Source of the DNA: Escherichia coli
GTDB lineage: Bacteria > Pseudomonadota > Gammaproteobacteria > Enterobacterales > Enterobacteriaceae
Reading direction: 5' to 3' (one strand)
Assembly: GCF_029227855.1 (NCBI RefSeq)
Contig: NZ_CP074356.1
Length of the DNA: 64,000 nucleotides
In this document: in pieces, positions 13,275 to 64,000 of the stretch
Position numbering within the stretch: the first letter of the stretch is position 1
How the letters are laid out: each line of letters opens with the position of its first letter
Program-made: the position numbers and the translations under genes
The notes under the pieces: model-generated
Told to the model about the DNA's origin: nothing
Database searches by the model: none
The model's input: only the letters and a program-made list of their open reading frames with translations

Positions 13275-13400
13275 CAACCAAACGACTCGGGGTGCCCTTC
13301 TTTGTGAAGGCTGAGAAATACCCGTATCACCTGATCTGGATAATGCCAGCGTAGGGAAGTCACGGACCACCAGGTCATTGCTTCTTCACGTTATGGCAGG
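13275..13400 (+). promoter_or_regulatory. TPP riboswitch (THI element) in the thiM leader
   Basis: Conserved thi-box core ..ggggtgcccttc..gtgaaggctgagaaatacccgtatcacctgatctggataatgccagcgtagggaagtc.. immediately upstream of the thiM start; ends approximate. Confidence 0.8.
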
Positions 13401-29557: not shown

Positions 29558-29584
29558 AAAAAATAAGCCCGTGTAAGGGAGATT
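29558..29584. other. Phage P2-type attachment core (attB) overlapping the CyaR 3' end; appears unoccupied
   Basis: Sequence aaaaaataagcccgtgtaagggagatt equals the P2 att core as recalled from memory; no ogr/P2-like genes flank it here. Confidence 0.45.
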
Positions 29585-29644
29585 ACACAGGCTAAGGAGG
29601 TGGTTCCTGGTACAGCTAGCATTTTATGGGTTATGTTTTTCAGC
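29558..29644 (-). ncRNA. cyaR: CyaR (RyeE) Hfq-dependent small RNA
   Basis: Minus strand reads GCUGAAAAACAUAACCCAUAAAAUGCUAGCUGUACCAGGAACCACCUCCUUAGCCUGUGUAAUCUCCCUUACACGGGCUUAUUUUUU, matching the CyaR sequence as recalled, including the terminal hairpin and U-tail. Confidence 0.8.
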
Positions 29645-29728
29645 GAAACAGATGATAACCTTAATAAATGCAGCTGTATGTGATCGGTTTCTAAGAATTT
29701 TCCATCCGGGAAAAATAATCGAAATTAA

Positions 29729-45169: not shown

Positions 45170-45310
45170 CGCTGAAACGGGAAAGCCCCTCCCGAGGAAG
45201 GGGCCATAAATAAATAAGGAAAGGGTCATGATGAAGCTACTCATCATCGTGGTGCTCTTAGTCATTAGCTGGCCAGCTTACTAAGACTACCAGGGCGGGG
45301 GAAACCCCGC
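45170..45310 (-). ncRNA. sib: Sib-family antisense sRNA (antitoxin) covering ibs copy 1; ends approximate
   Basis: Sib antitoxins are encoded fully antisense to ibs; minus-strand hairpin gcccctc/gaggggc at 45184-45204 followed by a U-rich stretch could be the 3' end. Confidence 0.5.
45228..45284 (+). CDS. ibs: Ibs-family type I toxin (18 aa, MMKLLIIVVLLVISWPAY)
   Basis: Small hydrophobic ORF preceded by aaggaaagggtc SD; matches the Ibs toxin family pattern. Below the ORF-track length cutoff. Confidence 0.75.
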   Translation: MMKLLIIVVLLVISWPAY

Positions 45311-45497
45311 TCTACCCTCACTCCTGAAAGTATGCCTTCACGATAAGATTGTCAATCTGCAGGCTTTGCAGTCTGCGATCCTGCCAGCAAATATTCTTTG
45401 CGAGACGTTACGCAATAATCACACTGGAAACTATTTTATCCGCAAGTCAGCGATAGACTGCATACAGGGCGAAAGGAGGTAAGCCGACGATTTCAGC

Positions 45498-45638
45498 GGG
45501 ACGCTGAAACGGGAAAGCCCCTCCCGAGGAAGGGGCCTTAAATAAGGAAAGGGTCATGATGAAGATACTCATCATCGTGGTGCTCTTAGTGATTAGCTAC
45601 CCAGCATACTAAGACTACCAGGGCGGGGGAAACCCCGC
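45498..45638 (-). ncRNA. sib: Sib-family antisense sRNA covering ibs copy 2; ends approximate
   Basis: Position inferred by repeat periodicity relative to copy 1. Confidence 0.45.
45556..45612 (+). CDS. ibs: Ibs-family type I toxin (18 aa, MMKILIIVVLLVISYPAY)
   Basis: Second repeat unit; same SD and ORF architecture. Confidence 0.75.
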   Translation: MMKILIIVVLLVISYPAY

Positions 45639-45826
45639 TCTACCCTCACTCCTGAAATTATGCCTTCACGATAAGATTGTCAATCTGCAGGCTTTGCAGT
45701 CTGCGATCCTGCCAGCAAATATTCTTTGCGAGTCGTTACGCAATAATCACAGAGGAAACTATTTTGTTCACGCGTTAGCGATAGACTGCATTCAGGGCGA
45801 AAGGAGGTAAGCCGACGATTTCAGCG

Positions 45827-45967
45827 GGACGCTGAAACGGGAAACCCTCTCCCGGAGAAGAGGGCTTTTAATAAGGAAAGGGTTATGATGAAGCACGTCA
45901 TCATACTGGTGATACTCTTAGTGATTAGCTTCCAGGCTTACTAAGAACACCAGGGGGAGGTGGAAAC
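45827..45967 (-). ncRNA. sib: Sib-family antisense sRNA covering ibs copy 3; ends approximate
   Basis: Position inferred by repeat periodicity. Confidence 0.45.
45885..45944 (+). CDS. ibs: Ibs-family type I toxin (19 aa, MMKHVIILVILLVISFQAY)
   Basis: Third repeat unit; variant C-terminus (FQAY). Confidence 0.7.
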   Translation: MMKHVIILVILLVISFQAY

Positions 45968-46164
45968 CTCTCCCTAACCCTCACTCCTGAAATTATGTCA
46001 CTCCGCCCTTAGTGTCAATCGACGGCTCTCCGTTCTTGCGAGGCGAATAGCAAAATTTTCTGCGCCGCCGGGCCTAATTCTGAAAGTTTCTTCGTTTGCT
46101 CTTATTTCATTATTGCAGTCGGTATGATACCGGACCTCAATAATTCTCTAAGAAAGGATTTCTT

Positions 46165-59029: not shown

Positions 59030-60613
59030 TCACACCTCGTACTCCATCTCGCCATCCTTATGCAGCGGAATAATCTGCACCTTCTGCACGCGATGGCTTT
59101 CCACCTGCAACGTTTTGAGCAAGTAATCCCCTACCTGAACTTCTTCGCCAGGTTTTGGAATACGCTGCAAATATTCCATCAGCAGCCCGGCAATGGTGTG
59201 ATATTCGCGTTTCTCATCCAGCGGTAGCGGCACATATTGCACCAGATCTTCCAGCGGCATATGACCATTCGCCGTCCAGGAACCGTCCGCATTTTTCTGA
59301 ATATCATGGCGGGCGTCGATCTCTTCCACTTCGTTCGGTAAGTTACCGGCAATGGTTTCTGTGACGTCACTTAATGTCACAATCCCTTCCACTGAACCAA
59401 ACTCATCCACCACAAAAGCAAAGTGCGTGCGGGCATTACGGAACTGCTCCAGGGCTGGTAACAACGGCAAGGTTTCCGGGAACACCAGCGGCTGGCGAAT
59501 CAACACCCGCAGGTTGAGCGGTTCGCCGCGCAGTGACTGTTGTAGCAGGTCGATAACGTGAACAACACCGAGCAAATCTTCTGCGTCATCACCGTCGGTA
59601 ACCACCAGCCGCGTATGCTGATTTCGCTCCAGCAACTGGCGGATCTCGTCTTCCGGCGCGTTGAGATCGATATGCTCAATATCGTGGCGCGACGTCATAA
59701 TGCTGCTGACGGTACGCTGATTAAGATTAAGGACCCGCTCAATCATCCGCCGTTCCTGCGGGTTAAAGATCTGCTGGTTACCATGATCCACCAGCATGGA
59801 CGCGGTTTCGGCGTCCAGTTCCGCATCTTCTTTTTGCCCGCTAAGCAGGCGCATTACCGCTTCGGTAGTCCGCTGGCGCAGCGTCTGGTTAGCGGAAAGA
59901 AAACGTCGCCGGTTAAAGATAGCCAACTGATTGAGCGCCTCGATCATCACCGAGAAACCAATGGCAGCGTACAGGTAGCCTTTCGGAATGACGAAGCCGA
60001 AACCTTCCGCCACCAGGCTAAAGCCAATCATCAACAGGAAACTTAAGCAGAGTATGACGATGGTCGGGTGGCTATTAACAAACTGAGTTAACGGCTTGCT
60101 GGCCATCAACATCAGGCTGATAGCGATAACGACGGCGGCCATCATGACCAGTAAATGGTCGACCATTCCGACGGCGGTAATCACCGAGTCGAGTGAGAAG
60201 ATGGCGTCCAGCACCACAATTTGCGTCACCACCCCCCAGAACTTCGCACCTTTGCGTTGCGTGGGGTTATTGCTGTCTTTCCCTTCCAGCCGTTCGTTCA
60301 ACTCCATCGTGGCTTTGAACAACAGGAAGAAACCACCAAACAGCATGATTAAGTCGCGGGCGCTAAAGGTAAACGAGCGGAAGCTGAACAGTGGTTGCGT
60401 CAGGGTGACCAGCCAGGAGATTGACGCCAGCAGTAACAGGCGCATTAACATTGCCAGCAGCAGCCCGGTAACTCGTGCGCGGTCACGCTGCTTCGGCGGT
60501 AGTTTTTCGGCGAGGATGGCAATAAAGACCAGGTTATCAATGCCGAGGACCAGTTCGATCACAATCAGCGTGATTAACCCGGCCCAGATAGACGGATCGG
60601 CAATCCATTCCAT
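59030..60613 (-). CDS. yegH: TerC-family membrane protein with CBS pair and CorC/HlyC domain
   Basis: ORF 59030..60652; start placed at [13 protein letters not shown] (527 aa). Confidence 0.8.
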
Positions 60614-61071
60614 AGTAAGTACAAAACCTATTCGTTGTATGACAAATGTCACAATTCGATCATGGATAAATCAGGGCAAAAATGCAATGTTACGGCACTA
60701 TTTATCTCACATTATTTGAGGATTATAACATCGCATTATCCCTGAATTAAAAGTGGTAATAATAAAATATTATTTAAGAAATATCGCATATAGATACGCC
60801 GTATTAAATATTGTCAACATAAAGAAACTCCTAAAAAATACCACACATGACACTTAATATAATTCTTAAAAATAGCCAATTGCCGATTTGTTACCTTGCC
60901 TGCAATTCCGTTAGCTGTAACACTTCCTCCTGCATTATTGTAGAGCTAATATTCAATTACCATAATGCCACCTTATATCTGGAAAATTAATATCCGGAAT
61001 AACGCTTTTTCATAAACGACTGCGTTAGAAAATCTAAGCTAAATCAGTGTATTGGTAGCTAAAAAGCCAGG

Positions 61072-61083
61072 GGCGGTAGCGTG
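61072..61083 (+). promoter_or_regulatory. ops element (RfaH recruitment site) within a JUMPstart-like leader upstream of wza
   Basis: Exact ggcggtagcgtg in the long AT-rich leader about 180 bp upstream of the wza start. Confidence 0.6.
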
Positions 61084-61261
61084 TCTGGATGCCTGAAAGA
61101 CCAGTCTGAATTATTCTTTCAATAGCCTGCGGATGAAATCAATTTTTTTAGGACTGATGCCAGTTAAATTTTTATTCAATTAACTGCAAGGTAAATGTGC
61201 ATGGCGACATTGCTATTAATAGTGCACAGGATAATTACTCTGCCAAAGTGATAAATAAACA

Positions 61262-62401
61262 ATGATGAAATCCAAAATGAAATTGATGCCATTATTGGTG
61301 TCAGTAACCTTGATAAGCGGTTGCACAGTACTTCCGGGCAGCAATATGTCTACGATGGGTAAAGACGTCATCAAACAGCAGGACGCTGATTTCGATCTCG
61401 ACAAAATGGTGAATGTTTATCCGTTGACCCCGCGCCTGATTGATCAATTACGCCCACGCCCCAACGTAGCGCGCCCCAATATGACGCTGGAAAGCGAGAT
61501 CGCGAATTACCAGTATCGCGTCGGGCCGGGGGACGTTCTTAATGTCACCGTCTGGGATCACCCGGAGCTCACCACGCCAGCCGGTCAGTACCGCAGCTCC
61601 AGCGACACCGGCAACTGGGTACAGCCTGACGGCACCATGTTCTACCCGTATATCGGCAAGGTTCACGTCGTGGGGAAAACGCTCGCTGAAATCCGCAGTG
61701 ATATTACCGGGCGCTTAGCGACGTACATCGCTGATCCGCAGGTGGACGTTAATATCGCCGCCTTCCGCTCACAAAAGGCCTATATCTCCGGTCAGGTGAA
61801 TAAATCCGGTCAACAGGCGATCACCAACGTGCCACTGACCATTCTCGATGCCATCAACGCCGCAGGTGGCCTGACCGACACCGCTGACTGGCGCAACGTG
61901 GTGCTAACACACAATGGTCGTGAAGAACGCATTTCTTTGCAGGCGCTGATGCAAAACGGCGACCTCAATCAGAACCGACTGCTTTATCCTGGCGATATTC
62001 TCTACGTGCCGCGTAATGATGATCTGAAAGTGTTTGTGATGGGTGAAGTGAAAAAACAGAGCACCCTGAAAATGGACTTTAGCGGCATGACCCTGACTGA
62101 AGCCCTGGGCAATGCTGAAGGCATCGACATGACCACCTCCAACGCCAGCGGCATCTTTGTCATTCGTCCGCTGAAAGGCGAGGGCGGGCGTAACGGCAAG
62201 ATTGCCAATATCTATCAGCTGGATATGTCCGATGCCACGTCGCTGGTGATGGCGACAGAATTCCGCCTGCAACCTTATGACGTGGTGTATGTCACCACCG
62301 CACCGGTTTCCCGCTGGAACCGTCTGATCAATCAGTTGCTGCCAACTATTAGCGGTGTCCGTTACATGACGGATACAGCCAGCGACATTCATAACTGGTA
62401 A
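61262..62401 (+). CDS. wza: Colanic acid / group 1 capsule export outer-membrane lipoprotein Wza
   Basis: 379-aa ORF with lipoprotein signal (..LISGCTVLP). Confidence 0.9.
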
Positions 62402-62406
62402 TCGTC

Positions 62407-62850
62407 ATGTTTAACAACATCTTAGTTGTCTGCGTCGGCAATATTTGCCGTTCCCCGACGGCGGAACGCTTACTGCAACGTTATCACCCGGAGCTAAAAG
62501 TGGAGTCCGCTGGACTCGGCGCGCTGGTCGGAAAGGGCGCTGATCCTACCGCTATCAGCGTCGCCGCAGAACATCAACTGTCTCTGGAAGGTCATTGCGC
62601 ACGGCAAATCAGCCGCCGTCTGTGTCGCAACTACGACCTGATTCTGACCATGGAAAAGCGCCATATCGAACGCTTATGCGAGATGGCACCGGAGATGCGC
62701 GGCAAAGTGATGCTGTTTGGTCACTGGGATAACGAATGTGAAATCCCCGATCCGTATCGCAAAAGCCGGGAAACGTTTGCAGCGGTGTACACATTACTTG
62801 AACGGTCTGCCCGCCAGTGGGCGCAGGCATTGAACGCAGAGCAGGTATAA
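62407..62850 (+). CDS. wzb: Low-molecular-weight protein-tyrosine phosphatase Wzb
   Basis: 147-aa ORF with the CX5R P-loop (VCVGNICRSP). Confidence 0.9.
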   Translation: MFNNILVVCVGNICRSPTAERLLQRYHPELKVESAGLGALVGKGADPTAISVAAEHQLSLEGHCARQISRRLCRNYDLILTMEKRHIERLCEMAPEMRGKVMLFGHWDNECEIPDPYRKSRETFAAVYTLLERSARQWAQALNAEQV

Positions 62851-62852
62851 GA

Positions 62853-64000
62853 ATGACAGAAAAAGTAAAACAACATGCCGCTCCGGTAACGGGCAGTGAT
62901 GAAATCGATATTGGTCGCCTGGTCGGCACCGTCATTGAAGCGCGCTGGTGGGTGATTGGCATCACCGCCGTATTTGCCCTCTGTGCCGTGGTTTACACCT
63001 TCTTCGCCACGCCGATTTATAGTGCCGACGCACTGGTACAAATCGAGCAAAACAGCGGCAATTCGTTAGTGCAGGACATTGGTTCGGCATTAGCCAACAA
63101 ACCGCCAGCATCGGACGCCGAGATCCAGTTGATTCGTTCGCGTCTGGTGCTTGGTAAAACGGTGGACGATCTCGACCTCGATATTGCAGTGAGCAAAAAC
63201 ACGTTCCCGATTTTCGGTGCGGGCTGGGATCGCCTGATGGGACGCCAGAACGAGACGGTAAAAGTGACCACCTTTAACCGCCCGAAAGAGATGGCGGATC
63301 AGGTGTTTACGCTTAATGTGCTGGACGATAAAAACTACACTCTGAGCAGCGATGGCGGCTTTAGCGCCCGTGGGCAAGCGGGCCAGATGCTGAAAAAAGA
63401 AGGCGTCACACTGATGGTTGAAGCCATTCACGCCAGCCCGGGCAGTGAGTTTACCGTCACCAAATACTCCACGCTGGGGATGATCAACCAACTGCAAAAC
63501 AGCCTGACGGTAATGGAGAACGGCAAAGACGCAGGCGTACTGAGCCTGACTTATACCGGTGAAGATCGCGAACAGATCCGCGACATTCTTAACAGCATCG
63601 CTCGTAACTATCAGGAACAAAATATTGAGCGCAAATCGGCGGAAGCGTCGAAAAGCCTCGCTTTCCTCGCGCAACAGTTACCGGAAGTACGTAGCCGCCT
63701 TGATGTTGCCGAAAACAAACTGAATGCCTTCCGTCAGGATAAAGATTCTGTTGATCTGCCGCTGGAAGCGAAAGCGGTGCTCGATTCGATGGTGAACATC
63801 GACGCGCAGTTGAACGAACTGACCTTTAAAGAGGCGGAAATCTCCAAGCTGTACACTAAAGTTCACCCGGCGTACCGCACGCTGCTGGAGAAACGGCAGG
63901 CGCTGGAAGACGAAAAAGCCAAACTGAACGGGCGTGTAACGGCGATGCCGAAAACCCAGCAGGAAATTGTCCGTCTGACCCGCGATGTCGAGTCTGGTCA
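62853..64000 (+). CDS. wzc: Tyrosine autokinase / co-polymerase Wzc, N-terminal part; gene runs off the window end
   Basis: ATG at 62853 opens a frame (MTEKVKQHAAPVTGSDEIDIGRLVGTVIEARWWVIGITAVFALCAV..) with no stop before the window end. Confidence 0.85.
   Translation, partial: MTEKVKQHAAPVTGSDEIDIGRLVGTVIEARWWVIGITAVFALCAVVYTFFATPIYSADALVQIEQNSGNSLVQDIGSALANKPPASDAEIQLIRSRLVLGKTVDDLDLDIAVSKNTFPIFGAGWDRLMGRQNETVKVTTFNRPKEMADQVFTLNVLDDKNYTLSSDGGFSARGQAGQMLKKEGVTLMVEAIHASPGSEFTVTKYSTLGMINQLQNSLTVMENGKDAGVLSLTYTGEDREQIRDILNSIARNYQEQNIERKSAEASKSLAFLAQQLPEVRSRLDVAENKLNAFRQDKDSVDLPLEAKAVLDSMVNIDAQLNELTFKEAEISKLYTKVHPAYRTLLEKRQALEDEKAKLNGRVTAMPKTQQEIVRLTRDVESG

Follow-up and report, generated by a model that had tools for sequence, protein, structure and literature searches.

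JUMPstart/ops elements precede the waaQ (rfa), rfb/wzx, hly, kps and tra operons, where they are said to have been described by Hobbs and Reeves in 1994 and by Bailey et al. in 1997. Knowledge that the colanic-acid leader contains a JUMPstart dates from the 1990s, and control of colanic acid by RfaH was reportedly described by Navasa in 2014 for E. coli K92. As for transcription initiation, the consensus of the RcsAB box reportedly goes back to Wehland and Bernhard in 2000; both the wza start site and its RcsAB box are said to have been mapped in that work and by Stout in 1996 (J Bacteriol 178:4273). The RcsAB box has the consensus TaAGaatatTCctA (PMC4325325) and the RcsB box reads TN(G/A)GAN4TC(T/C)NA (PMC7913699). 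A paper of 2023 attributes both JUMPStart-RfaH antitermination and RcsA/RcsB activation to the wca operon (PMC9976346), and RfaH-dependent operons typically carry no ribosome-binding site (review PMC6358824). In strain CFT073, the ops of wza is the 12-mer GGCGGTAGCGTG, located at -190 in the UTR and on the non-template strand (PMC9765446). RfaH was found there by ChIP in an hns stpA double mutant and the signal is absent in an rfaH mutant. RfaH was not detected at wza in wild-type CFT073 growing in rich medium because the promoter is off. H-NS covers this promoter in the wild type, and wza was termed a 'cryptic' RfaH locus (PMC9765446).

The window analysed here, a 64-kb stretch of E. coli DNA, includes the locus orthologous to the K-12 cps/wza promoter-leader, with the same yegH-wza arrangement. 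The 809 bp around ops are 100% identical to strain JNEC-KY178, where asmA, yegH (-), wza, wzb and wzc (+) are annotated. The divergent gene yegH, encoding a TerC-family membrane protein, occupies 59030-60613 on the - strand according to the RefSeq annotation of NZ_AP045174.1, a record with 100% identity. The first three genes of the colanic-acid operon follow on the + strand: wza (61262-62401), wzb (62407-62850) and wzc (62853 onward, the window ending inside the gene). With yegH starting at its annotated position 60613, the yegH/wza intergenic spacer extends from 60614 to 61261 (648 bp) and makes up the control region of the colanic-acid (wza-wcaM) operon. The initial annotation described the region upstream of wza as AT-rich, and its G+C content is indeed 0.27-0.40 across 60600-61300 versus about 0.50-0.60 (~53%) in the flanking genes. 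However, the left boundary given there, 60653, is wrong because of an over-long yegH ORF call: the ORF list prolongs this gene to a GTG at 60652 and the spacer already starts at 60614. The proposal of a leader of ~600 bp likewise holds in part. A transcribed leader is present but does not run the full length of the region: only ~330 nt of the spacer are likely to be leader, and roughly the left half is promoter/operator DNA.

Among the systems compared, the group 1 capsule clusters (K30/Klebsiella cps) have a homologous wza-wzb-wzc module which is preceded by JUMPstart/ops as in the window. They also carry an RcsAB box, for instance TAAGATTATTCTCA in K. pneumoniae. However, their JUMPstart is located between galF and wzi and their RcsAB box belongs to a separate promoter upstream of galF, whereas the window has no wzi and combines the JUMPstart and the candidate RcsAB boxes in a single spacer before wza. 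The best explanation of this spacer, which we hold to be highly probable, is an RfaH-loading, RcsAB-gated and H-NS-opposed regulatory region of the colanic-acid operon.

The JUMPstart occupies 61045-61083 on the + strand. It matches the Rfam family RF01707 over the full length of the model (positions 1-38) with 57.3 bits, for a gathering score of 35 (E 2.8e-12). The ops forms its 3' end (61072-61083), on the wza-sense, non-template strand and 190 nt before the wza ATG. It reads GGCGGTAGCGTG and agrees exactly with the 12-nt ops consensus GGCGGTAGnnTG. It lies downstream of both candidate promoters discussed below (-10 at 60858-60863 or 60919-60924) and upstream of the first gene, wza. The same 39-nt element is found at the waaQ (rfa), rfb/wzx, hly, kps and tra operons, and the window 12-mer is identical to the ops of wzx, rfaQ, tssH and c4518 in CFT073, which are also on the non-template strand of a 5' leader (PMC9765446). 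The JUMPstart/ops before wza is therefore a real but already known, textbook element.

An exact ops at 61072-61083 had been reported in the initial annotation and is confirmed both by its uniqueness and by the RF01707 match. It could nevertheless be thought that a 12-mer of this kind arises by chance in AT-rich intergenic DNA. One-mismatch versions occur in 33 of 100 shuffles, indicating that the exactness of the ops and its context matter, and the 8-mer core is present nine times in the window. In contrast, the exact 12-mer has a single copy in the 64-kb window and appears in none of 100 dinucleotide-preserving shuffles. Together with the E-value of the 39-nt JUMPstart and the orthologous conservation in many genera, this led us to reject a chance match, whose probability we regard as negligible. 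Counted on both strands of the whole window, the 8-mer GGCGGTAG has nine copies, compared with 1.18 expected from shuffles, and none of 100 shuffles reaches this number. The other eight were rejected as ops elements since they have neither the CGTG tail nor the JUMPstart context; the enrichment may result from codon or oligomer bias.

In Rfam, JUMPstart is represented as an RNA motif whose 5-bp hairpin is formed in the window by UUGGU (61052-61056) and GCCAG (61066-61070). This raises the question of whether the element acts mainly as RNA, the hairpin or a short ops-containing leader RNA binding a factor or titrating RfaH in the manner of RirA, a 73-nt ops-containing RNA from the waaQ 5' UTR that binds RfaH (review PMC6358824). 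The pairs of the hairpin are indeed kept in 54 orthologues. However, the changes observed are one-sided only (U-G/U-A), with no compensatory double change, and ops is established to act as exposed non-template DNA. In addition, the whole leader folds no better than shuffled sequences (z = -0.06). The only conserved structures detected in it by RNAalifold are the JUMPstart hairpin and a short hairpin overlapping ops, again with no compensatory changes. A predominant role as RNA thus appears very doubtful.

To assess the conservation of the element, we compared loci anchored on Wza from 80 Enterobacteriaceae species, 79 of these loci being informative. The genera include Escherichia, Citrobacter, Salmonella, Enterobacter, Lelliottia and Kosakonia as well as Phytobacter, Franconibacter, Atlantibacter, Trabulsiella, Cedecea and Buttiauxella; 74 of these species and the window were used for the conservation profile. 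In 75 of the 79 informative loci, a JUMPstart with GGCGGTAG is located 186-199 nt upstream of the wza ATG. It is missing in three species of the Pseudescherichia vulneris group, which retain wza as well as the promoter block and the blocks of the distal leader, and Citrobacter sp. On2M exhibits a single ops mismatch (GGACGGTAG instead of GGCGGTAG). Some lineages can therefore dispense with the element, and these JUMPstart-loss species, together with Citrobacter sp. On2M, constitute natural variants for testing its contribution. They might also suggest that the JUMPstart is an inherited relic, RcsAB-dependent initiation alone setting expression and RfaH adding nothing measurable. The three species that keep wza and the remaining leader in spite of the loss are consistent with this, as is the lack of an RfaH signal at wza when wild-type cells grow in rich medium (PMC9765446). 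However, the sequence of the element and its distance from the ATG are maintained in 75 of 79 species while the adjoining leader drifts, and RfaH loads at the CFT073 wza once the promoter fires (PMC9765446). A relic is accordingly very improbable, even slightly more so than the RNA role discussed above.

The wza promoter was predicted from a phylogenetic footprint. A -35-like TTGCCT (60896-60901, + strand) is present in 67 of 74 species. An extended -10-like element, TGTAACACT (TGT followed by AACACT), covers 60916-60924 on the same strand with its hexamer at 60919-60924; its counterpart is TG(C/T)AACAAT in 68 of 74 species, and the block reads TGCAACAAT in most genera. The -35/-10 block aligns without gaps, which indicates a constant spacer of 17 bp. 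The sequence of this spacer is variable, and cross-species conservation ceases just downstream of the -10-like element. The combination of a conserved -35, a conserved TG-extended -10, a variable 17-bp spacer and the loss of conservation downstream places the predicted sigma-70 promoter of the wza operon at 60896-60924 (+ strand). This promoter would be weak, with a start near 60931, giving a predicted leader of ~330 nt in which ops would be at about +142. With 7/12 positions in agreement with the consensus, it is too weak to be called by a simple promoter scan. Alternatively, the TATAAT at 60858-60863 might serve as the -10, with a start near 60870. RNAalifold supported no conserved RNA structure in the block 60867-60972.

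The sole match of the promoter scan, TTGTCA-17 bp-AAAAAT (60811-60839), was rejected: its -10 is not conserved and shuffles give 3.4 matches per region. This site combines a universally conserved TTGTCA with an AAAAAT that is AAAACC in K-12, for 9/12 positions of the sigma-70 consensus. It overlaps box P (see below) and may resemble a promoter by chance.

An RcsAB box had been expected in this region, and a motif scan now places two conserved candidates there, at 60775-60788 and 60820-60833. Both precede the predicted promoter, and their conservation extends across genera. The first, box U (TAAGAAATATCGCA, 60775-60788, + strand), keeps T1, A3, G4, T10, C11 and A14 of the consensus TaAGaatatTCctA (9/14 overall) and is the only 14-mer of the spacer matching all six of these positions. 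It also fits the RcsB box except at one position (PMC7913699). Box U is identical in K-12 and O157, and its counterparts at the corresponding alignment position in other genera are TAGGAAATATCGCA, TAGGATATATCGCA and TCGGATATTTCGCA. The second candidate, box P (TAAAGAAACTCCTA, 60820-60833, + strand), directly follows TTGTCAACA in a block (60811-60833) that shows a column conservation of about 0.9 over 74 species. It matches 10/14 positions of the consensus, and its right half, TCCTA, is a perfect RcsB half-site. Better, near-consensus RcsAB matches are found at the aligned place of box P in several genera (TGAGGCTAATCCTA, TGAGGATAATCCTA and TAAGTTAATTCCTA). The two candidates resemble the RcsAB box in sequence, box U at the six positions and box P in the RcsB half-site.

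A weaker RcsAB-like match, block M (CTTAATATAATTCTTAAAAAT, 60853-60873, + strand), shows 4 mismatches to the consensus and contains the TATAAT mentioned above. In most species it reads CTTAATATTAATCTTAAAA, which includes a palindrome, and its conservation is at least 0.9. Boxes U and P and block M are all free of differences from K-12 despite the many substitutions in this allele. Box U is our slightly favoured candidate for the published wza RcsAB box; box P is a tentative second choice and block M would be an unlikely one. Boxes U and P may also both be used. Full-text literature searches for the three candidate box sequences returned no relevant match.

The ops heads a surface-polysaccharide operon (wza-wzb-wzc) whose first gene has no Shine-Dalgarno sequence, as described for RfaH-dependent operons (PMC6358824). 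No Shine-Dalgarno-like GGAG, GAGG or AGGA occurs within 20 nt of the wza ATG when the sequence is read directly. This absence was observed directly here, as were the ops motif itself, the strand on which it lies, the family to which it belongs, its placement with respect to wza and its conservation. RfaH-dependent read-through of wza-wzb-wzc, as implied in the initial annotation, is supported by the JUMPstart context, by the conservation in 75 of 79 species, by the ChIP results in CFT073 (PMC9765446) and by the 2023 study of the wca operon (PMC9976346).

The mechanism of RfaH and its occupancy of the orthologous site are taken from the literature; we infer where exactly the promoter lies, where transcription starts and which box is bound by RcsAB. 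In the proposed scheme, transcription would initiate at the weak sigma-70 promoter formed by TTGCCT, the 17-bp spacer and TGTAACACT, near 60931. This promoter would be silent unless RcsA-RcsB binds the upstream box(es) at 60775-60788 and/or 60820-60833 and overcomes H-NS. RNA polymerase would reach the JUMPstart ~140 nt into the transcript, and its pause at ops would expose the non-template GGCGGTAGCGTG. RfaH would then bind the exposed ops strand together with the polymerase, exclude NusG and suppress pausing, Rho-dependent termination and H-NS roadblocks, and its refolded C-terminal domain would recruit the ribosome to a message devoid of a Shine-Dalgarno sequence. The expected outcome is read-through of the roughly 20-gene operon. 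No intrinsic-terminator-like site was found on the + strand in 61000-64000, and the absence of such terminators from the part of the operon included in the window fits an anti-Rho/anti-H-NS role. RfaH action at wza is conditional on RcsAB-driven initiation. In this respect the wza operon differs from the other JUMPstart operons cited above: it is normally silent and needs RcsAB to start.

As a discovery the RfaH site itself carries little weight, RfaH binding at the wza ops having been shown by ChIP in 2022. The contribution made here is a base-level map of the region, which shows its boxes and likely promoter, the parts of the leader that vary and those that are invariant, the JUMPstart-loss variants and a rare promoter allele. 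Such a map could guide colanic-acid engineering, or the study of Rcs activation, H-NS silencing and RfaH anti-termination at one operon.

The leader can be subdivided according to its conservation. Its proximal part (60935-61040, + strand) is variable across genera, and the distance from the -10 to ops ranges from 142 to 180 nt among species. The distal part (61109-61261, + strand), downstream of ops, contains highly conserved blocks in the conservation profile: ATTATTCTTTCAATAG (61109-61125), TTTTAGGACTGATGCCAGTTAAATT (61146-61170), ATTAACTGCA (61179-61188) and a fourth one that reaches the wza ATG (61224-61261), all on the + strand. These four blocks are near-invariant across many genera. 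From the JUMPstart to the ATG (61041-61261), the window differs from K-12 at 1 of 221 bp, versus about 2.5% in the flanking genes, and 4205 of 4818 E. coli genomes share this segment with an identity of 99% or higher. The post-ops blocks are also far more conserved within E. coli than the synonymous sites of the flanking genes. Neither a supported RNA structure nor codon periodicity was seen in them, and they persist in the species that lost the JUMPstart. This raises the possibility, which we consider rather unlikely, that the post-ops leader with its four blocks is an uncharacterised control layer. An RNA-binding protein or an sRNA could bind to the blocks; alternatively, they could form a Shine-Dalgarno-independent ribosome-loading platform used with RfaH. 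GGA motifs are present in two of the conserved blocks (TTTAGGACTG and CACAGGATAA).

A 16-codon ORF, MKSIFLGLMPVKFLFN (61134-61184), overlaps the conserved TTTTAGGACTGATGCCAGTTAAATT block and has its stop codon inside ATTAACTGCA. An in-frame start codon is present in 37 of 54 species. The ORF was nonetheless rejected as a leader peptide: conservation exhibits no codon periodicity (0.79, 0.69 and 0.72 at positions 1, 2 and 3) and Trabulsiella carries an in-frame stop. It is probably non-coding.

The segment of the window that holds the promoter and the variable leader corresponds to a rare allele. While 61041-61261 is 99.5% identical to K-12 and the flanking genes about 97.5%, the 340 bp of 60701-61040 are only 83.8% identical, and an 11-bp deletion relative to K-12 occurs near 61023, just before the JUMPstart. 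In spite of this divergence, the conserved boxes of the K-12 locus are intact in the window. Of 4821 E. coli genomes, just 3 match the allele of 60701-61040 with an identity of at least 99%, and 4684 are 80-90% identical to it. Its nearest relative among the fetched loci is that of E. whittamii (92%).

At the yegH end of the spacer, three additional conserved blocks, CGATCATGGATAAATC, AAAATGCAATG and ATTTATCTCA, are located in 60659-60708. They likely correspond to the divergent yegH promoter or to its 5' UTR. In many RefSeq E. coli records, a 'hypothetical protein' of 49 aa is also annotated on the minus strand, spanning the wza promoter region; in O157:H7 (locus L003, 1262-1411) it corresponds approximately to window positions 60814-60963 on the - strand. 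The window allele contains no ORF of at least 40 aa on the minus strand at ~60814-60963, and this 49-aa protein is likely an annotation artefact. Elsewhere in the window, Rfam matches at gathering level are found for three tandem Sib antitoxin RNAs (45213-46018, - strand), STnc490 (2200-2323, - strand), CyaR (29561-29646, - strand) and a TPP riboswitch (13278-13374, + strand).
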